Shown here: positions 20,311 through 53,512 of the stretch, in pieces
How the letters are laid out: every line of letters begins with the position of its first letter
Position numbering within the stretch: the first letter of the stretch is position 1
Sequence record: PQ613263
Origin: Shigella phage Moonfish
DNA length: 64,000 bases
Reading direction: 5' to 3' (one strand)
The notes under the pieces: model-generated
Told to the model about the DNA's origin: nothing
Database searches by the model: none
What the model saw: only the letters and a program-made list of their open reading frames with translations
Position numbers and translations under genes: made by a program

Positions 20311-20826
20311 CTACATGATTATCCAGTCTTCGGCTAATATATCTGATTGTGAGGGAACCCAGGGCATAAACTCATTATCAACCGTTTTAATTCCCAACCA
20401 ATGTCGTTTCCTGCAAGTGGAATTCTCATGTTTATCCATGGACCAATATTTACTTGATACCAAGGTGATATACATTCCTTTTCCATTCCAGGCTTTACGG
20501 CTCATTCTAGAGCCAGTCTTCACAAGTTCAATTGCGCAACCAAAGGTGCAGCCTTTATCCACATTAAAGTAAGTGGACTCAAATACAGGTGCCGGTGACC
20601 AGCTAATATAGCCACGGAATTGGGGATGGTTGGGCAGGGAATCTGTATACTCGACTAAGTAACCATTCTCTGATGGGTCTTCATCTGCTGGTACATCCCA
20701 GCCACGAAGTTTGCAGTATGTTCCCTTATTCATCGGGAAACCATTTACATGCTTGGTTCCAATATAGTTAGAGAACTGAACTTTAATTTCTTCTGTCATA
20801 TCTACCTCAAACGAGAAAGCCCTCAC
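20311..20826 (-). CDS. hypothetical protein (Cys/Trp-rich)
   Basis: 171-aa ORF, coding-like composition. Confidence 0.55.
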   Translation of the reverse strand: MRAFSFEVDMTEEIKVQFSNYIGTKHVNGFPMNKGTYCKLRGWDVPADEDPSENGYLVEYTDSLPNHPQFRGYISWSPAPVFESTYFNVDKGCTFGCAIELVKTGSRMSRKAWNGKGMYITLVSSKYWSMDKHENSTCRKRHWLGIKTVDNEFMPWVPSQSDILAEDWIIM

Positions 20827-29107: not shown

Positions 29108-29412
29108 TATTCCCCCTTAGGAACCATGTTTGCTTGGAACTCTGGTTCAGACATTAGACCCAGATTGTTAATAGACAGATAAACAATGTCTTTTAAATCA
29201 ACTGAGGTGTCGAAACGCTGGTCCAGACTAATCTTCAAGGAATGGTTGGCACGGGCCAAATCTTTGTAGGTCACATGAGGTTCGTCAGTGAGCAGCATTG
29301 TGTTCATGGTAAGCAGGGAACCATCATCAGCTTTAGGAAGCTGGAAGATTACCTGTGCTGCTACCATCCAATGATATTTTCTGACAACGGTTTCTTTAGT
29401 ACTTTTAGTCAT
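29107..29412 (-). CDS. hypothetical protein
   Basis: 101-aa ORF, start/stop overlaps with neighbours. Confidence 0.45.
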   Translation of the reverse strand: MTKSTKETVVRKYHWMVAAQVIFQLPKADDGSLLTMNTMLLTDEPHVTYKDLARANHSLKISLDQRFDTSVDLKDIVYLSINNLGLMSEPEFQANMVPKGE

Positions 29413-30317
29413 GCGAATGCCTTTTGAATTATTTGATGAACTTCTTCAGGGGTAGCGTGATTTGGAATCTCAATCTCGTTAGCCCACGTTGGGTAGAACA
29501 AGGACAGTTCCCCACCCAAACCAACTTCTGGATGAGCAATATCAGGATGGTCTTGCCAGTTAACGGCTTCAACCAAATGCTTGTTCGTGTACTGCAAGGT
29601 ATCCATGTTGTCACGAATCATGAAGTACTGAGCATCATGAATGTGAATACTAGGACGAATATCTAACCTGAACTCACTGGCTCTAACTTTACGCATAAAC
29701 TCCGAGCCAGCACGGTTATTCAGTAGGCACCAGCTTTGCCCTAAGGCATTACCAGCAGTTCTACCTTCAGCTTCTGCTTCATATGGAGTCTTACATGTCC
29801 CACGTAAAACCTGAGCCAGTAAAGGAGTACGCACTCTCAAACCAAATGCAGCAGTTACATAACCAGTCTTGGCAGCTTCGTCTAGCTTAGCCTGAACCCA
29901 AGCATCACTAACTACATAAAGGTCGTGATAACGTTTCTCTGTGAGCTTTGCTTTCTCTTCCGAGAAGCCACAGTTCTTCATTAAGCCCATATACGTACCA
30001 CCATAGGTAAGCAGGAAGGTTGGAGCCTTCGAGTCACCTCGTAATGATTTGTATTTGTGCTGGATGGAGTTGATGGATTCAACCGTATCTACAATGTCTG
30101 GCATCTGCTCACCGAAGTAAGCATACGCACGAAGACTGTGCCCATCATAACCATCGGTATATACCTTAAGTTTCTGGGGGTCTTTCGTAGTCAATGCAGA
30201 GATACGGTCTTCAAGGCTTGCAAAGTCCAGTCCACAAAATATCCAACCTGGGGGTGCTTCGAAGCATTTCTTAATCTTCTTGGCATATTTGGAACCACTA
30301 GGGATGGTCTGTAGATT
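29409..30317 (-). CDS. DNA polymerase (family A) 3' exon: polymerase palm/fingers part
   Basis: Begins in-frame with NLQTIP..., contains GLDFASLEDRI (motif A, DYSQIELR-like), KAPTFLLTYGGTYMG (motif B) and IHIHDAQY (motif C HD); joins exon 1 to restore RLSASEP-NLQTIP. Confidence 0.8.
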   Translation of the reverse strand, partial: NLQTIPSGSKYAKKIKKCFEAPPGWIFCGLDFASLEDRISALTTKDPQKLKVYTDGYDGHSLRAYAYFGEQMPDIVDTVESINSIQHKYKSLRGDSKAPTFLLTYGGTYMGLMKNCGFSEEKAKLTEKRYHDLYVVSDAWVQAKLDEAAKTGYVTAAFGLRVRTPLLAQVLRGTCKTPYEAEAEGRTAGNALGQSWCLLNNRAGSEFMRKVRASEFRLDIRPSIHIHDAQYFMIRDNMDTLQYTNKHLVEAVNWQDHPDIAHPEVGLGGELSLFYPTWANEIEIPNHATPEEVHQIIQKAFA

Positions 30318-31023
30318 CCTGATGTTCAGCATGGGTCGTTAATCCATGCCCGTCTTTCGACTGCTGCATATTCCTATGCAGAGCAGACTATATCATCACG
30401 CCAGATAGTAAGGCGTGCCATGCGCTTCCACCCACTTGAGTGTACTCTCTTTCGAGATAGTCGTTGCACCTTTCAATGCTGCGTGTAACCGAGCGTGGTC
30501 AGGAACACTTAGCAATACAAGATTATCAAAGTCGTTGTTATACGGATTCTCATCACAATGATGCACACACCAGCCTTTTGGTATTTCACTGATATTAAGT
30601 GCCTCACATACTACCACATGGTGAGCAAAAACGTGTTTACTGCCTTTGCGTGCAGTATACCAATCCGGTTTAAGTACCATTAAGTAACCTTTACTGTCGG
30701 ATACTAAACCTTTGTAGTTATGATGGTCTTTCCCAAATTTACCTAGCATGGGGTTATTTTCCCCCAGCTTGGAGCGTCGGTAAGACTTTGCATTTCTGTT
30801 TTGACGGTATTCTTTACTGTAGTTCTCCATAATATATTTAGAGACTTTTTTGTAATTAATACCTAAACGCTTTGATATTTCTGCTTGAGATAGGTCAGTA
30901 TTCTCGTACAGAGTCTTGATATCCATCATGTGCCTCCTAAGGCAGGTATGGTTGATTTGGCTCAGGATTGCCCGGTCTGGGTTTCCCCTGAATTCACATG
31001 GTTTAAATAGCCCAATTTATTTT
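30318..31023 (-). mobile_element. probable group I intron (706 nt) inside DNA polymerase gene, carrying an HNH homing endonuclease ORF
   Basis: Interrupts a conserved Pol A motif; 5' exon ends in U, intron ends in G; GGGCU 10 nt into the intron can pair with exon-end AGCCU (P1 with U.G); frame is preserved across the junction. Confidence 0.7.
30396..30929 (-). CDS. HNH homing endonuclease (intron-encoded)
   Basis: 177 aa; own RBS TAGGAGG; N-terminal HTH-like segment; C-terminal HNH motif CVHHCDENPYNNDFDNLVLLSVPDHARLH. Confidence 0.8.
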   Translation of the reverse strand: MMDIKTLYENTDLSQAEISKRLGINYKKVSKYIMENYSKEYRQNRNAKSYRRSKLGENNPMLGKFGKDHHNYKGLVSDSKGYLMVLKPDWYTARKGSKHVFAHHVVVCEALNISEIPKGWCVHHCDENPYNNDFDNLVLLSVPDHARLHAALKGATTISKESTLKWVEAHGTPYYLA

Positions 31024-32694
31024 AGGCTCTGAAGCCGATAACCTGCCGGAGACCGTGCCTCCCAAATTGAGATTACCGAACAGATAGTGCCAGCCATCCG
31101 GTCCCGGTTGGGCGTTCCTGAAAGCTGGTATAAAGCTAGTAATAATCTTATCCACGAGCTTATAGTCGATAAGAGCATTGAGCAGTTCCTTAACATCTTC
31201 ACTCTGCGTATGTGTACGCAGTGCTTTAATAGTGTCACCATCAGTAGCTGGTTGCTTGCTCTTAGTAAGACCAAGAACTGGTAAGCCAATAAAATCAAAT
31301 AACAATTTCTGTAACTGTGGACCGGAGTTAGGATTGAACTCGATGTCACAATCAGCCAATGTTACCTGCTTCTTCTTAAGCTTGGTATTCTTATCGTCTA
31401 CCCATTCCTGACGAAGCATCAGGGTGAAATTCTTCATGAGCTTAGACTCACGAATAGTTTTCAGAGCCTGGTTCCTGTCAGTTTCCATTTCCTCAGCTAC
31501 TTGGTTAACGGTTTCCATATTCATTGGCATACCGGTTAACTGCATCTGAATAATGTCTTCACAGGCAGGTTTAAAGATGTTGTTATAAACATCCAGTTGG
31601 TCATCAGCAATGAGAGTATCCCAGTGCTTCTCGTAGGTGTACCACGTACACAGTCCATCGATTAGGTTGTAGCGTAACAATTGCTCATTAGGAATAAGAC
31701 AAATGTCTTTGATATCGTCTTGAGCATAGTTACCGGCATACTCCTGAGCCTGGTCTTTCAGACTAAGGTGATTACCAGCACAACTGTTAGTAGCCAGATA
31801 AGTGATTAACTTAGTGCAGTCCCAGTTACGTAGCATGACGTTCATGCCATACAGTAGACCTTCTGTATCAATCAGGTTATCCATGAATAACTGATAGATA
31901 AGTACATACACGTCATAGCTAATGTTGTGATACATCTGCCGTTGGGTGTACTTAATGAAGAACTCACGTAACAGGTTACGGACAATATCATTTCTGTTGA
32001 TACGCCCATAAGGTGCTTCAGTAGCTCCCTTAATTGGCTCGTAGTCCACATTAAAAGCTATGCCTTGTGTCTTACTCCAACAGAATGTAATCGTTCCTAT
32101 ACCGGCGTTATAGTGCTTTAAACCGAATGATTCGATGTCTATAGCCAATGGCTTATTCATCTCCAGCAACTGGTCTAGCCAGGCTTTAATCTCTTCGGGG
32201 GTATCTGGGTAGGCCTCAAACTCAATGATTCCCTGACCTGGTTCAGCATACTGTCCACGTATGTGGTTAAGTAGTGCATCCATACCCTGAGCAATTTTAG
32301 CTCTCACTACAGGTGGGTCATAAAAGACCTGTCTGTAGTTAGGCGTATAGATAACCTTCTGCTTACCCCATACTGAGTCACAAACGTAGCCGAGGTTGGC
32401 CTCTGCTTTAGCTTCTTTAGTCAGTATTTTAAAGTAATCAGAATCGGTACAGATGACGTACTGAGTTTCTGCATCATCCAGTACTTGTTGCAGTTCCTGC
32501 TGTATGAACTCCTTAATCTCCTTTGCAGGAGTCTTCTTTTTGCCGGGGGCAGAGTGAAGTTCAAGGAAGATAAAATCTTCCATGCTTAGGTCATATGGCA
32601 GCAGGTAGGTTTTAATCATCTCCTCCCTTCGGATTTGATGACCGAGGATAGCAATAGGATATTTACCCGTATCCTGAGAGGTGATGTAACGCAT
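31024..32694 (-). CDS. DNA polymerase (family A) 5' exon: 3'-5' exonuclease and N-terminal polymerase part
   Basis: Contains Exo I LAIDIESF; ends ...TVSGRLSASEP (then KINWAI* if unspliced), i.e. truncated in the middle of the conserved RLSSSDPNLQNIP motif. Confidence 0.8.
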
Positions 32695-47828: not shown

Positions 47829-47861
47829 TTAACTTAATGCATAATCCGTTTCAAGAATGTC
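47829..47861 (-). CDS. RNAP II large subunit, 3' mini-exon encoding the C-terminal foot (D)ILETDYALS
   Basis: Closely resembles the T7 RNAP C-terminus RDILESDFAFA; exact 3' junction inferred. Confidence 0.55.
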   Translation of the reverse strand, partial: DILETDYALS

Positions 47862-48988
47862 CTGCCAGAGGCTGTCATCCAGCTTACCCGCAGAGAACTC
47901 TTGTCCCAGTACCTGAGATAGGATGAAGCCCAGCAAGTCACTCTTAGCAATGTCAGATAGAATCTGATTGTACTGACGACGTAGGTCATTACCATAGTTA
48001 GGATGACAACGAAAACCATTAGTTAAACGAGTCGTTAGCTCGCCCTTACCTTCCATGATTAACATGAAAGCCATATGTAGCATCTGCTTGTTTACGAGCA
48101 AGCATTGCCTCCTCAAGTGTGTCGTACGTACCCAGACCGATCTGTTTGCGATTGACTGTGATGTGTGCCTGAAATCTACCAGAAGGCAGTATTCTCACAC
48201 CGTTCACTTTGCTTGAAGTATTACTAGATAAACTCATATTCATCTGGTTCTGTCTGCTGGTTACATTTCTCAAATTAGACCAACGATTGTCGTTTCTAGT
48301 ATGATTGATGTGGTCCACCTGGTTAGGTGTTTCCCCAGTTTCCATTATCCAGATTATTCGATGTAGTAAGTACTCTTTGCGGCCCAGGCTAACGGATAGA
48401 TACCCTTCTTTGTGAGGATACCCCACAATTGTTCCGGCTAACCCACTGGCAGAGTCATAACGATGAGTCACTAGCCCACTATCCCTGTCATACCTTAAAA
48501 CCTTCTGCAAAGATTCTTGGGTAATATTACCCAAGTTTATTATTAGGTTTTTACAGGTAGAGCATAGATGACCTATTGGACTCTTTCTAGCATCATAGAA
48601 GTTACAAACAAACTCATTAGAGCATTGCTTGCAACTACAGATAGCTGTGTACTTACCAGTTTTACGTAATATTTGAGAGTTATCTAACATATGGATTCCT
48701 TAGTAATTTTGCATACAATTTCAGATTGTATCCTAACCAAGGAAGTAAGTCTCCAATTTTCACTGGAGTATCGGACTATATCATCACCCACTAATCAGTG
48801 GGGCAAGGCGCTTGGGTGGTCACTTGACTCACCTACTCTACTCACATACGAAATGCTTTCGATAGTCTCTGAACCTTCCCTCATAGAGGGCTTGGCTGCT
48901 GATTGGCATATCCATAGGACTTAGCTTTCCAGCAATTCACCTTGTTTTCGACACGGATTACTCCGTGAAGGATCATTTATGTTTAATC
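47862..48988 (-). mobile_element. probable group I intron (~1.1 kb) in RNAP II large-subunit gene, carrying an HNH-AP2 endonuclease ORF
   Basis: Upstream ORF stops right after ...VLTVHD, 9-10 codons short of a T7-like C-terminus that is encoded 1.1 kb downstream in frame-compatible position; splice after caU with intron ending caG satisfies U/G group I rules. Confidence 0.55.
48046..48690 (-). CDS. HNH endonuclease with AP2 DNA-binding domain (intron-encoded)
   Basis: 214 aa; own AAGGAA RBS; HNH_3-like GYLSVSL...HRIIWIMETGETPNQVDHINHTRNDNRWSNLR; C-terminal AP2-like GVRILPSGRFQAHI...GTYDTLEEA. Confidence 0.8.
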   Translation of the reverse strand: MLDNSQILRKTGKYTAICSCKQCSNEFVCNFYDARKSPIGHLCSTCKNLIINLGNITQESLQKVLRYDRDSGLVTHRYDSASGLAGTIVGYPHKEGYLSVSLGRKEYLLHRIIWIMETGETPNQVDHINHTRNDNRWSNLRNVTSRQNQMNMSLSSNTSSKVNGVRILPSGRFQAHITVNRKQIGLGTYDTLEEAMLARKQADATYGFHVNHGR

Positions 48989-50014
48989 ATGTACAGTCAA
49001 TACAGGGAATGGCTTCTTAGGTAAAGTGTCCAGCATGTCTGCTACTACCTGACGGTCAACCATAGCAATAGTGCCTGGGTCGAGATAGTCGATAATAGAC
49101 ATAGATAAGAATCCAGACTTCTCGTAGTGTTCCCACAAGGTCTGTACCATTTCCATGTTACCTTCAATCTCCCCATACTCTGCTGGGCCTGTGTCGCAGA
49201 GTTCACGAACAGCAGCAACCAGGTTAGCATCGAAGTTACAACGACGCAGCATCTCGCGTACCACCATCCCATCAATAGAGTGGGTGATGTTAGCAGAGAG
49301 CATACGAGTCTTCTCTTCAGTACCCTGAACCATGCGGGTAATGTCGAATGGTTTACCTAAGAAGTTAACAGTCTGTACTTCTGGAACCATGACCTTAATG
49401 ACGGCATGGAAGTTGTCAGACAATACCCATACGTAACGGTTAGCATCCGGGTTACCACATTGCAGTAAGAACTTGTTCAATGCCCAAGGCCCACTAGCAA
49501 CAGTTTCCATTACATTCTCAAAAGTCTTGAGACGGATACCCTCACCGAATACTTCTTTAGGCTTAGCTTCTGAACCGTAGAATGCAGTCATAACTGCCTG
49601 CTTAGTGTCACTACGCTTAATACGAGATGCTTCACCAAGGATGTCCAACATCTTGTGATAGATAACTGTATAAGCATCACGACGTAATGGCTTACCGTTT
49701 TCACCCATGTAGTTAACTACGTTACACAGTTCAGCAGCAGAACGGTCACCAGTCAGGCAAGCCAGTAACTGCAAGCCTGATGATGTAGCATCCAGAGCTA
49801 CGGCATAGCCAATAGGCTTACCGGCTTTCATATCTTTCCATGCGTTTACACCTGCATAGAACAATGCGGATTCTTCAGCTTCATCTACCAGATTAAGCAG
49901 GTTAGCTTCGTTTTCATCGAACCAGCTAATACGTTCATCCCATGTTTTCTTATCCAGACCCATGTTATTCGCAATATCAATCTTTAAATATTCTTTCGCT
50001 GTGAAAAGCTGCAT
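48989..50014 (-). CDS. phage RNAP II large subunit (N4 gp16-like, T7-like catalytic half), 5' exon
   Basis: LDATSSGLQLLA (T7 motif A FDGSCSGIQHFSA), KQAVMTAFYGS (motif B), ITHSIDG (T7 H784 region), RELCDTG (motif C). Confidence 0.8.
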
Positions 50015-50015
50015 C

Positions 50016-50597
50016 TTAAGCTCCTAGTTTCCACGTATAGCCATATGCTTGTGCATATGTACCAATAATTGATTGTTTAATGTTTGATGGTATTCCATTT
50101 ACACTGCGTGCTGCTGCACTCAGTGAATGGAATGTCTGGATGTAAATACCATCCAGTGTGTATTGCTCTACAGGGATAGCAGATTTGGTATTAATACCGT
50201 TGATTGCATCAGAGTAATACCTTCTTACATTGGCGTTTACCGTAACAACACGAATGTTATCCAGTGAGTAACCTTTATAGTCATCCAGCCTGTCAAGGCT
50301 TGGCTTCAGGTTGGTTGGGTAATCCTCTATTACCCATTTATCATACAGAGTGTGAAACTCTTTCTTTGATAACACCCATTGTTCTAGTTCCTCTTTAGTA
50401 AAAGTAACAGGATTAAACCCTTTCTTCTTGGTTCTGCTTACGCAACCGGAGTACATTTGATTAATGACTCCTTGTTTGGAATGGATAAAACGTTTCACAC
50501 AGTCTTTACAGTCTGCTCTTACACCCTGTTTACCTGTGGACTGTTTATTGAACATGTCCAGAGGCAAGTTCTGCTTACATACTGAACATGTCTTCAT
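50016..50597 (-). CDS. homing-endonuclease-like protein (Cys4 zinc ribbon + C-terminal NUMOD1-like DNA-binding motif), free-standing between RNAP II subunit genes
   Basis: 193 aa; CSVCK...CKDC; C-terminal FHSLSAAARSVNGIPSNIKQSI...GYTWK resembles DNA-binding tails of GIY-YIG/HNH homing endonucleases; no catalytic motif identified. Confidence 0.45.
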   Translation of the reverse strand: MKTCSVCKQNLPLDMFNKQSTGKQGVRADCKDCVKRFIHSKQGVINQMYSGCVSRTKKKGFNPVTFTKEELEQWVLSKKEFHTLYDKWVIEDYPTNLKPSLDRLDDYKGYSLDNIRVVTVNANVRRYYSDAINGINTKSAIPVEQYTLDGIYIQTFHSLSAAARSVNGIPSNIKQSIIGTYAQAYGYTWKLGA

Positions 50598-50598
50598 A

Positions 50599-51417
50599 TT
50601 AATCCTCGTTTACTAACTCTTTATCTGCGAACTCTATAACTGCCTTATTGTAAGAGGTTCCCGCATAGTTAATATGGTATCCACATGCATATGTTCTTCC
50701 CCTCTTATCAAATTTATGTGCTAGTGAGAAGTTATTACCTTCTTTGGTCACTAACTCCATTACTTCCTTAGCTGTACGGCTGTACTTCTCAAAGGCTTTA
50801 ACTCGTTTCTCATAGTCCTGACGGGTTTCACCCTCTTTGGGTTTATCCATGTTAGGACGAGAGTCTTTTACATAGTTGGCAACGTCCCAGTTAATACAGA
50901 GTCGTTGGTTGTTCATACGGTTAATGTGGTCAAGGCAGACGTCCATCTCATGATGGTTCTTCTTGAGGATGATTGAGCCTTTAGATTCATAGTAGCCAGT
51001 GTCCCGATTAGTCAGGACTGGCTTAGGCTTACTGACGATAGGTAATGGATACTGGAATGCCTCCAGTTCCATCTGAACATCTTCACTAATCTCATAAATA
51101 ACACCGAACTTGTCGATGGTAGGGTCATAGTTGAAGCAGTCATTCTCTGCCATCTTATACAGACAGTCAGCGATATACTGAGCGTCATCTGAGTGACTCA
51201 TGAGAGAGCCAATCATAGTCTGAATGTCAGCACGTTTATGTAGGGCAATCTGCACCATTGCATCAATGAGCAGCTTATAATCAATTTCTAAATAGGCGGC
51301 GAATGCCTTAAAGTCAATTTCTTTGGAGTCCTCAAATTCCTTCCTCATGCGAGGGAGTAATTGGTTTTTGTTGAAAAGGATTTCAAGTTGCTTCTGATGT
51401 TCAATAGATGAGTACAT
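50599..51417 (-). CDS. phage RNAP II small subunit (N4 gp15-like, T7-like N-terminal half)
   Basis: 272 aa; KFDKRGRTYA matches the T7 RNAP DWRGRVYA motif; RBS AGGAG; directly upstream of the large subunit. Confidence 0.7.
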   Translation of the reverse strand: MYSSIEHQKQLEILFNKNQLLPRMRKEFEDSKEIDFKAFAAYLEIDYKLLIDAMVQIALHKRADIQTMIGSLMSHSDDAQYIADCLYKMAENDCFNYDPTIDKFGVIYEISEDVQMELEAFQYPLPIVSKPKPVLTNRDTGYYESKGSIILKKNHHEMDVCLDHINRMNNQRLCINWDVANYVKDSRPNMDKPKEGETRQDYEKRVKAFEKYSRTAKEVMELVTKEGNNFSLAHKFDKRGRTYACGYHINYAGTSYNKAVIEFADKELVNED

Positions 51418-51450: not shown

Positions 51451-51465
51451 AGCTGCGGAGCAGCT
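51451..51465 (-). promoter_or_regulatory. conserved GGA-triloop hairpin, candidate vRNAP-type early promoter
   Basis: AGCTGC-GGA-GCAGCT (6-bp stem, 3-nt loop) ~40 nt upstream of the RNAP II small-subunit start; identical 17-mer recurs at 54508-54524. Confidence 0.45.
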
Positions 51466-51470
51466 ATTAC

Positions 51471-51851
51471 CTAAAAGGTTCCCCAGTAGATATAGTCATC
51501 TCCCAGGATAGGTTTCCAGGCTTCGTCAAACATGACGTTGCCTGTAGCATTTGCAAACATAGGGGCAATGTCCTTGTCTTCATAACCAGCCAGTCCACAA
51601 CCAATGCGTGTTACTTTAAAGTCCCACTCTGGGTGTGCTGCTGCATACAGGATGAATGCTGCTACAAATTTCTCAATATCCTCTAAGGACATAGTCTTGA
51701 TTGACTGGTTTTTGGTTGGGATTGCATAGCTGCAACCATAATGGCCTACGCCCATACCCCAACGAGCACCGTGCTTCTTATATGCAACTTTCGCTGCACC
51801 AGCACCGTGACGGCCTGCTAAATTACTACCGAATACTAATATCTCTTTCAT
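51471..51851 (-). CDS. hypothetical protein with Gly-rich loop after first beta-strand (Rossmann/SLOG- or macro-like?)
   Basis: 126 aa; ILVFGSNLAGRHGAGAAKVA motif. Confidence 0.45.
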   Translation of the reverse strand: MKEILVFGSNLAGRHGAGAAKVAYKKHGARWGMGVGHYGCSYAIPTKNQSIKTMSLEDIEKFVAAFILYAAAHPEWDFKVTRIGCGLAGYEDKDIAPMFANATGNVMFDEAWKPILGDDYIYWGTF

Positions 51852-51855
51852 GCTA

Positions 51856-52176
51856 TTAATCCTTTGGTTTAAGAACTTGGAATGCGAACACAGGACGTTT
51901 ACTACGCCACTGGTTCATAGCTAGTTCACTAGCAGGAGAGCCATCATGTAAGTCATATATGAATGTAATCATATACTCTGGTTCCTCTGGGAAGTTCTCT
52001 GTAGAGAACGGTAGACCTGCTTCTTTTAATACAGGAACCAGTGGTGATTCAGCTGCACAATAAATAATGAACTTTTCGCTGAATGCTTTACTGGTCTGAG
52101 ATACGTAATCAATATTACGCATCATCTTATCGACATCAGTAAATGTATTATCATGTACTACTACGATGTTATTCAC
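51856..52176 (-). CDS. hypothetical protein
   Basis: 106-aa ORF. Confidence 0.45.
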   Translation of the reverse strand: MNNIVVVHDNTFTDVDKMMRNIDYVSQTSKAFSEKFIIYCAAESPLVPVLKEAGLPFSTENFPEEPEYMITFIYDLHDGSPASELAMNQWRSKRPVFAFQVLKPKD

Positions 52177-52430
52177 TCTACTTTCTCCAGGGTTAGATAT
52201 ACTGTATTCATTTGAGGCACATAATCACAAAAACCAATTTCCTCTTGTCTGCCACTAGACTTCCAAATACAGTTTTCAGTTAGTTTAGGCTTTCTACTAA
52301 ATCCAATTAGTGAGGCATTCTTACTCTTCTGAGGACGAGGTAATAAGGCTACATATTTAACCCATAATGGGACTTCAATAGTTTGTCCCATATAGTTAAA
52401 TGATTTAGTTACAGGGAATGTAATAATCAC
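52173..52430 (-). CDS. hypothetical protein
   Basis: 85-aa ORF. Confidence 0.4.
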   Translation of the reverse strand: MIITFPVTKSFNYMGQTIEVPLWVKYVALLPRPQKSKNASLIGFSRKPKLTENCIWKSSGRQEEIGFCDYVPQMNTVYLTLEKVE

Positions 52431-52790
52431 TTAGTACCTCACCACTATTACTTTCTTATTATTTAACCGAGTCATGATATCAATCATGTGTTTGGTTCCT
52501 TTTGACTTACCATCCCAGAATGCTACAAGAGTATCTGCGAAATTAGCCATTTCAGTATTACGTACATAACCTGCACGCTTACCTAATCTGTCCCAGTCAG
52601 CAGGAAATTCATGTATTATCATCCCTGCCTCTTTCCAGAGATTATATGCTGTAATGTCTGCTCCTCTAGCCATACCACATACAAGTTCAGGTGAATCAGT
52701 TATTTCACCAGATTCTACTAGCTTCTGTAATTCAGCAATCATGCGATTAGTGTCAATGAAGTCACGTCCACCAGCTACAATTAGTCTCAT
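52431..52790 (-). CDS. SLOG-superfamily (DUF2493-like) nucleotide-binding protein
   Basis: 119 aa; IVAGGRDF ... GMARGAD ... FWDGKSKGT pattern characteristic of DUF2493/SLOG proteins (pattern-based). Confidence 0.5.
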   Translation of the reverse strand: MRLIVAGGRDFIDTNRMIAELQKLVESGEITDSPELVCGMARGADITAYNLWKEAGMIIHEFPADWDRLGKRAGYVRNTEMANFADTLVAFWDGKSKGTKHMIDIMTRLNNKKVIVVRY

Positions 52791-53008
52791 TTCTGATACC
52801 CCTGAATATAGTTAATACGGCGAATACGTTGAGTAGATGCCTTAACAGCCATCTGATGATTTTCTTCTTTGTGCTGATTTTCCAGCACCTTAGCCCATTC
52901 TTCCTGGTTCCGTTGTTTCTGTAATATACGACTACAACGTTTATGATTGGCAACTCCACGTCCTTTCTTACAGACTGGGCATATACCATAATCGTTTGAG
53001 TACATCAT
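52787..53008 (-). CDS. small Cys/His-containing basic protein (zinc-ribbon-like)
   Basis: 73 aa; CPVCKK...HKRC. Confidence 0.4.
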   Translation of the reverse strand: MMYSNDYGICPVCKKGRGVANHKRCSRILQKQRNQEEWAKVLENQHKEENHQMAVKASTQRIRRINYIQGYQK

Positions 53009-53313
53009 TGGCTTAAAGCCTCCATTAATATTTTACGAATAACGTTAACATCAGATTCAGTACCAATTAAACCAACAGGTTTCTTTGTACTATCTGTGAC
53101 AAAGGATGCAATCCTTTCCATCTCTGCTGTAATTAATTTGTCACCACTAATAAGACGATTACGAAGGTAAGCCTCATAAGCTACCTCTATATCTTCTACT
53201 GTGGTTCTTTCATTACGAGTGAATGGATTACTTAATGGGAAGGGTAAATGTACCCGTATATTCCTGTCAGCTACCTTAGCTAAGTGAGGGAGTATACATA
53301 CTATTTCATTCAA
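53005..53313 (-). CDS. hypothetical protein
   Basis: 102-aa ORF. Confidence 0.45.
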   Translation of the reverse strand: MNEIVCILPHLAKVADRNIRVHLPFPLSNPFTRNERTTVEDIEVAYEAYLRNRLISGDKLITAEMERIASFVTDSTKKPVGLIGTESDVNVIRKILMEALSQ

Positions 53314-53512
53314 GATTCTTTCTCCTATTTAAATACATATCTAAACTATTCAAGAATAAAAAATAGGAGCCTCCTATTGGAGGACTCCTTACTATTTGAT
53401 ACATGGGTGATTGAAGGTAACAATCTTACGTACTGGTTCAGATGTCTGTTGCTTAGCAGCCAGACGCCCTTTCATCTTTTGTACGTCAGCTTTGGTTCCC
53501 ATGATTAATGAC

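Follow-up and report, generated by a model that had tools for sequence, protein, structure and literature searches.

A putative early gene block of Shigella phage Moonfish encodes a YAcAr-clade SLOG protein and a predicted minimal macrodomain

A compact gene block shared in part with N4

The DNA analyzed here, referred to as the window, is a 64,000-nt stretch from Shigella phage Moonfish (PQ613263). Its 51.0-53.4 kb part was 90-94% identical to the Gamaleyavirus genomes PhAPEC5, PhAPEC7, and KKP 3715, with an identity of ~94% to the N4-like coliphage PhAPEC5. The genus Gamaleyavirus consists of N4-like podoviruses of E. coli within the Schitoviridae. In the 51.0-53.4 kb part, every gene is encoded on the minus strand, and six of these genes form a block that begins with a gene for a 102-aa DUF4326-like protein, the ortholog of N4 gp9 (53005-53313). 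It is followed by a small basic ORF (52787-53008; 73 aa; pI 9.9; phrog_6887, unknown function) that overlaps both neighbors, a 119-aa protein of the YAcAr clade (DUF2493) of the SLOG superfamily (52431-52790), and an 85-aa ORF (52173-52430; phrog_1972, unknown function) that abuts the SLOG stop codon. The last two genes encode an N4 gp11-like acidic protein (51856-52176; 106 aa; phrog_7827; 70% identical to N4 gp11) and, immediately downstream, a predicted minimal macrodomain of 126 aa, the ortholog of N4 gp14 (51471-51851). The SLOG and macro genes are therefore not adjacent, with ORFs 52173-52430 and 51856-52176 in between. The very basic product of ORF 52787-53008 carries a CxxC motif (CPVC) and is possibly a zinc ribbon.

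The packing of the block is operon-like, since starts and stops abut or overlap throughout, and only the macro gene is set apart from its predecessor, by 4 nt. Another 53 nt separate the end of the block from the gene for the small subunit of RNAP II (50599-51417), which lies downstream of it. A consensus scan returned minus-strand terminator-like hairpins, both pattern matches only, that flank the block, one upstream of it (53370-53383) and one just 3′ of the macro stop codon (51451-51465), and none inside it. Synteny with N4 suggests that the block is part of the early-gene region and is transcribed early.

Compared with N4 (L166 2805-4528) and PhAPEC5 (L001), the arrangement of this early block is mosaic. 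Orthologs of N4 gp9, gp11, and gp14 are present within 51471-53313 at 70-73% identity, N4 gp12 (DUF4326) and gp13 are missing, and the place of N4 gp10 is taken by the SLOG gene together with ORFs 52787-53008 and 52173-52430. N4 and PhAPEC5 both possess gp12, gp13, and gp14 and have no SLOG gene. The SLOG gene is thus an accessory early gene of some Gamaleyaviruses that is dispensable in close relatives.

The first gene of the block scored 15.3 bits against Pfam DUF4326 (PF14216), below the cut-off of 25. Its product, 73% identical to N4 gp9, nevertheless matched PhAPEC5 gp11, a DUF4326 protein, in BLASTP (8e-8), and jackhmmer searches started from this protein and from bona fide DUF4326 proteins arrived at the same 18 ORFs. 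By these sequence comparisons, ORF 53005-53313 appears to be a divergent DUF4326 paralog.

ORF 52431-52790 encodes a YAcAr-family SLOG protein

A first-pass annotation of this DNA had proposed that ORF 52431-52790 is a DUF2493 protein of the SLOG superfamily, citing a GGRDF...GMARGAD...FWDG pattern. The pattern was found in this minus-strand ORF, with GGRDF at residues 7-11, GMARGAD at 39-45, and FWDG at 91-94, and the proposed family was recovered. The protein matched Pfam PF10686 (YAcAr, formerly DUF2493) above the cut-off over residues 1-68 (36.4 bits; GA 28.2; E 4.6e-9), and all 120 listed closest homologs carried a precomputed PF10686 annotation. Across dozens of homologs, the motif residues of this ORF and of ORF 51471-51851 were invariant or nearly so, which, together with highly significant family matches, places both patterns far beyond chance.

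Since sequence and profile searches against PDB chains were marginal at best for both proteins, with no meaningful match for the SLOG protein, fold comparison was needed. The AF2 model of the SLOG protein was confident (pLDDT 95.8) and showed a five-stranded Rossmannoid with beta-alpha repeat topology in which strands 1, 2, and 4 are followed by conserved Gly-rich loops, as in SLOG-type folds. Foldseek matched it with probability 1.0 to ShosA, to the SLOG domain of ThsA bound to 3'cADPR, and to DprA, and with 0.98 to the LOG-like proteins TT1887 and TM1055; Cdn1 was also among the best matches. These matches hold at the level of the fold only (TM ~0.6; E 1.5e-3 to 8e-2).

Some of them bear on an alternative in which the protein would be DprA-like, either binding ssDNA or mediating recombination, or a "GTP-binding" protein; it would then serve phage DNA metabolism without any link to ADP-ribose, and its proximity to a macro gene would be coincidental. 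Relatives are annotated as "DNA processing protein DprA" or "GTP-binding domain" in GenBank and PHROG, and the protein itself matched phrog_289, which carries the latter label. Moreover, GMARGAD resembles the GxARGID motif of DprA, DprA and the DNA binder ShosA are both among the fold matches, ICP1 HelB combines a YAcAr domain with an SF1B helicase, and other YAcAr domains occur under ParB-like "chromosome segregation" annotations. However, a Pfam search gave no match to DprA/Smf (PF02481) at E<=0.1, and the 119 aa of the protein make up a single Rossmannoid domain that lacks the flanking domains of DprA; on these grounds, an identity as DprA was dropped. GTP binding is unsupported because the protein has no P-loop. 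Its many invariant polar residues (R9, D10, D45, R77, N78, D93, S96, T99, and H101) instead suggest a specific small-ligand pocket or an active site, and the repeated fusions to macro and NADAR domains described below tie the family to ADP-ribose. We therefore consider an ADP-ribose-independent, DprA-like role improbable.

LOG phosphoribohydrolases are characterized by a PGGxGTxxE motif with a catalytic Glu. The equivalent stretch of the phage protein reads DGKSKGTKHM, in which Thr99 is kept and the Glu position is occupied by Met102, next to an invariant His101. Consistent with this, Pfam gave no LOG match for this ORF. The protein shares GGRDF, GxARGAD, FWDGxSxGT, and the fold with YAcAr (PF10686), a YpsA-like clade of the SLOG superfamily whose viral members likewise co-occur with Macro, NADAR, and DUF4326 genes. 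The phage copy is a stand-alone domain, whereas in some members of the family it is joined to a macro, helicase, or ParB domain. The family name itself gives no mechanism, since its members include no solved structure and no demonstrated activity.

A further point of comparison is ORF83 of phage DruSM1, a DprA/SLOG-like protein whose deletion sensitizes the phage to AVAST type III (10.1101/2024.04.14.589459). It is likewise a small phage protein of SLOG fold (DprA/Smf-like; also in the EVADES preprint), and the comparison, made by its reported residues only, places the pocket residues R89, N90, and T112 at a spacing close to that of R77, N78, and T99 in ORF 52431-52790. In contrast, ORF83 has Asp where the Moonfish protein has His101. 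One viral homolog whose residue spacing matches ORF83 exactly bears a DUF4326 domain.

ORF 51471-51851 is predicted to be a minimal macrodomain

The first-pass annotation had also described a similar glycine-rich loop in the 126-aa minus-strand ORF 51471-51851 and read this protein as a second Rossmann-like one. The loop is present, as VFGSNLAGRHGAGAA at residues 6-20, but its resemblance to that of the SLOG protein is superficial. A profile-profile comparison with hhalign gave a probability of 0.4%, and the two ORFs were accordingly rejected as paralogs with a common Gly loop. Structure prediction, which supported a SLOG fold for ORF 52431-52790, instead yielded a macrodomain here. The AF2 model was again confident (pLDDT 93.6), and its structural matches were almost exclusively macrodomains, including TARG1/C6orf130, DarG, BT1257, and Poa1p, with TARG1 as the top Foldseek match and DarG as the nearest structural neighbor.

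A Pfam search gave no match for ORF 51471-51851 (no Macro model at E<=0.1), and the only model to capture the protein was NCBIfam NF049995 (A1S_2505_Nterm; "A1S_2505 family phage non-structural protein"; 158 bits, cut-off 45). A literature search on A1S_2505 found nothing relevant. The protein is 73% identical to N4 gp14 over its full length and occupies the same genome position. Although widespread, gp14 is outside the core set of 14 genes given by Chan et al. (2014) and was not retained as a core N4-like gene. PADLOC models, including those for DarG, matched none of the six block proteins, which led us to reject a sequence-based membership in the DarG, ShosA, or ThsA families.

Among PDB chains, TARG1/OARD1, a terminal ADP-ribose glycohydrolase, was the only relative aligned on the catalytic motifs, at a marginal E ~0.4. 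In this weak HMM alignment, IPTK falls on ITKK, placing K47 on the catalytic K84 of TARG1, and RIGCGLAG falls on RIGCGLD. K47 is kept in at least 90% of the macro family and corresponds to the catalytic lysine that closes the beta-hairpin, K84 in TARG1 and K80 in DarG (PMC5179494). In DarG, mutation of K80 and N22 caused the greatest loss of activity (PMC5179494); N10 of the phage protein is in register with N22, and the spacing from T46 to G84 equals that from T79 to G117 in DarG. The second catalytic residue of TARG1, Asp125, has no match, as the aligned position within RIGCGLAG is an invariant Ala88. This argues against TARG1-like chemistry, not against DarG-like chemistry, since DarG has Gly there by register. 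ORF 51471-51851 is thus probably an ADP-ribosyl hydrolase, with K47 and N10 as candidate catalytic residues.

The similarity to DarG also has clear limits. By register, the phage protein starts ~12 residues after DarG and lacks the N-terminal strand that bears the N8/L9 contacts, and no aromatic residue occupies the position of DarG W83. DNA specificity of the macrodomain is therefore unsupported by its residues. A conserved C-terminal FDxxW...YWGT segment may compensate for the missing strand. In comparison with DarG2, the protein is ~25 residues shorter and consists of the macrodomain only, without the C-terminal DarT-binding domain and without an adjacent DarT, and its bacterial homologs likewise have no neighboring DarT partner. 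It also differs from both DarG2 and the phage eraser AdfM in belonging to another sequence family (A1S_2505), with no match to Pfam Macro or PADLOC DarG models.

In records of Rhodobacter phages (RcZahn, L003 2471-2860, and others), homologs of this macro protein are annotated as "ADP-ribosyltransferase". The label sits on the macro homolog itself and was rejected as evidence of an adjacent ADP-ribosyltransferase (ART); it looks wrong for a protein with the fold of an ADP-ribose eraser.

Domain fusions and gene neighbors link the two families

An exhaustive scan of 1.84 billion cluster representatives identified 5,141 members of the macro family. The gp14-type macrodomain is widespread, with over 5,000 clusters at the 50% identity level and 458 matching phage genomes, and the YAcAr SLOG protein matched 872 phage genomes. 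Among the 150 best macro representatives, 53 were multi-domain; seven were macro-YAcAr fusions, in the order macro-SLOG in four cases and SLOG-macro in three, and four were macro-NADAR fusions. Single fusions joined the macro family to an Acb2/Tad1 hairpin, to a pyrimidine-dimer glycosylase domain, and to DUF488/DUF4326. A triple fusion, NADAR-macro-DUF488/DUF4326, was observed in the metagenomic protein P0351.

Gene neighborhoods gave a related picture. On 17 of 80 viral contigs, a DUF4326 gene lay within 4 kb of the macro gene on the same strand, upstream of it in 16 cases, while a YAcAr gene was near the macro gene on only six of the 80. On N4-like contigs, a NADAR-DUF4326 fusion was found just upstream of the macro gene (L019 2062-2934), and on another the same place was held by a fusion of DUF4326 with a DprA-like SLOG domain (L008 1739-2695). 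The recurrent domain fusions point to a functional coupling of the macro and SLOG families, so that the two proteins, while unrelated in sequence, appear to be functionally linked. The two need not act together in this phage, however, since N4 and PhAPEC5 keep the macrodomain without the SLOG protein.

Bacterial homologs of the macro protein were stand-alone genes with heterogeneous neighbors. Across 46 homologs, whose neighbors represented 68 Pfam families, no conserved ART or DarT partner was found. The idea of an antitoxin that was co-opted and is accompanied by a conserved toxin gene in bacteria was left unsupported, as no partner recurred in the 46 loci.

The same survey speaks to the possibility that the macrodomain, perhaps with the SLOG protein, is an eraser that limits or reverses modification of phage or host targets by an ART of the phage itself. 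ARTs of the "N4-like" or "N4-ART" type are among the most frequent viral ARTs, many of them fused to head-packaged MuF (PMC9503650), and other phages have writer-eraser pairs, for example sirtuin-Macro. Yet no ART was found among the window ORFs scanned, none is annotated in PhAPEC5 (records 1-56 kb), and none occurs among the fusion partners or neighbors of the macro family, which makes self-directed erasure very unlikely.

A proposed role in ADP-ribose counter-defense

The gene set itself has been described before, and the novelty of the present findings is modest. In their comparative genomic analysis, Iyer, Burroughs, Anantharaman, and Aravind (2022; PMC9503650) reported that viral SLOG (YpsA-like), Macro, NADAR, and DUF4326 domains co-occur, fuse, and are placed among early genes, and they predicted that these domains process ADP-ribose derivatives made by the host. 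A survey of jumbo phages made the same prediction for YAcAr (PMC7824862), and the orthologs of the two proteins in the N4-like Klebsiella phage KP8 were already labeled "DUF2493/DNA processing A domain" and "ADP-ribosylglycohydrolase" (PMC6950046). The Moonfish block matches this network in domain set, fusions, early placement, and predicted counter-defense. It does not represent a new kind of system; our analysis confirms and refines the existing prediction, assigns a macrodomain fold to the second ORF instead, and documents macro-YAcAr fusions. Iyer et al. do not single out the gp14-type minimal macrodomain of N4, and their comparative genomic prediction favors soluble ADP-ribose derivatives, not DNA adducts.

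We propose that the macrodomain, the YAcAr SLOG protein, and the DUF4326-like protein represent three members of the viral NAD+/ADP-ribose-processing network and form an early counter-defense set, a reading to which we give about even chances. Under this proposal, all three would be made before phage DNA replication and would neutralize ADP-ribose-based host immunity. The macrodomain would act as an ADP-ribosyl hydrolase through its TARG1/DarG-type lysine K47, with N10 positioning the substrate, and would strip ADP-ribose from macromolecular adducts. In this pathway, the SLOG protein would bind an adenine-nucleotide or ADP-ribose-derived ligand and possibly cleave it at the N-glycosidic bond. 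The first-pass annotation had suggested that both proteins modify or sequester nucleotides or signals; its interpretation is partly supported, with the second ORF to be read as a macrodomain.

As for the substrate, we favor phage DNA modified by DarT2-type toxins, given the DarG-type catalytic residues, the structural proximity of DarG, and the DNA-acting fusion partners. Two experimental precedents exist among phages. AdfM (anti-DarT factor macro; PhiKZ gp104), a chimallivirus macrodomain, reverses DarT2 modification of DNA and protects the phage against DarTG2 (PMC13309987), and phage NADAR proteins (AdfN) reverse DNA modification by DarT1 (PMC11825919).

The main alternative is that both proteins degrade or sponge soluble ADP-ribose signals instead of acting on macromolecular adducts. 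Possible substrates would be cADPR isomers (Thoeris/TIR), ADP-ribose-1''-phosphate, and O-acetyl-ADP-ribose, and the labor could be divided such that the SLOG protein binds or cleaves the adenine-ribose bond and the macrodomain processes the substituent of the distal ribose. This is the kind of ligand favored by Iyer et al. (PMC9503650). On the other hand, the macro fusions to NADAR, to a pyrimidine-dimer DNA glycosylase, and to DprA-like SLOG domains point to DNA, DarG is the best structural neighbor of the macrodomain, and DNA adducts are the target of those phage macro and NADAR proteins that have been validated experimentally (PMC13309987, PMC11825919). The phage moreover already has a Tad2-like gcADPR-sponge domain elsewhere, although a second such activity would still be compatible with this. 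We regard action on soluble signals as plausible but rather unlikely.

A more specific form of the preferred DNA-adduct reading, which we put forward as a speculative and improbable one, is that gp14-type proteins form a stripped-down class of macrodomains that dispense with the N-terminal strand, use the C-terminal FDxxW...YWGT segment, and, with SLOG and DUF4326 enzymes, dismantle ADP-ribose adducts on ssDNA in several steps. The early promoters of N4-like phages have to extrude as ssDNA hairpins and would thus be unusually vulnerable to DarT-type ADP-ribosylation, which would explain why these phages retain the pathway. If so, the SLOG protein would be a new N-glycosidase or adduct reader and not a signal sponge.

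One major arm of bacterial anti-phage immunity acts by ADP-ribosylating DNA, RNA, and small molecules (for example, DarTG, Thoeris, and CmdTAC), and the phage erasers AdfN and AdfM have been demonstrated only recently. Assigning substrates to the proteins described here would give an annotation to thousands of early phage genes now labeled "hypothetical" and would aid host-range prediction for therapeutic N4-like phages.

Other features of the window

A 171-aa ORF on the minus strand (20311-20826) has a Tad2-like (DUF2829) C-terminal half (PF11195; 78 bits, cut-off 25). It is the positional counterpart of the PhAPEC5 DUF2829 protein, whose annotation notes a similarity to N4 gp49. Because Tad2 proteins counter Thoeris as gcADPR sponges, the phage may carry a further counter-defense gene related to ADP-ribose.

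Downstream of the block, the gene for the large subunit of RNAP II (N4 gp16-like; 47829-50014, minus strand) is split within polymerase motif C. Its exon 1 (48983-50014) has ...VLTVHD as its last residues and is followed by a group I intron (Rfam RF00028; 48751-48994; 91 bits, GA 50) and then by an HNH/AP2-like homing endonuclease ORF (48046-48690), and the rest of the subunit (CFRCHPNYG...) is encoded in ORF 47829-48116. In PhAPEC5 and N4, this gene is uninterrupted. A free-standing HNH/NUMOD1 homing-endonuclease-like gene of 193 aa (50016-50597, minus strand) lies between the two RNAP II subunit genes, at a position where PhAPEC5 has only a 162-nt ORF. The DNA polymerase gene at 29409-32694 is probably split by an intron as well, since minus-strand ORFs of 563, 177, and 307 aa match the PhAPEC5 DNA polymerase part I, intron HNH endonuclease, and DNA polymerase part II in size and order.
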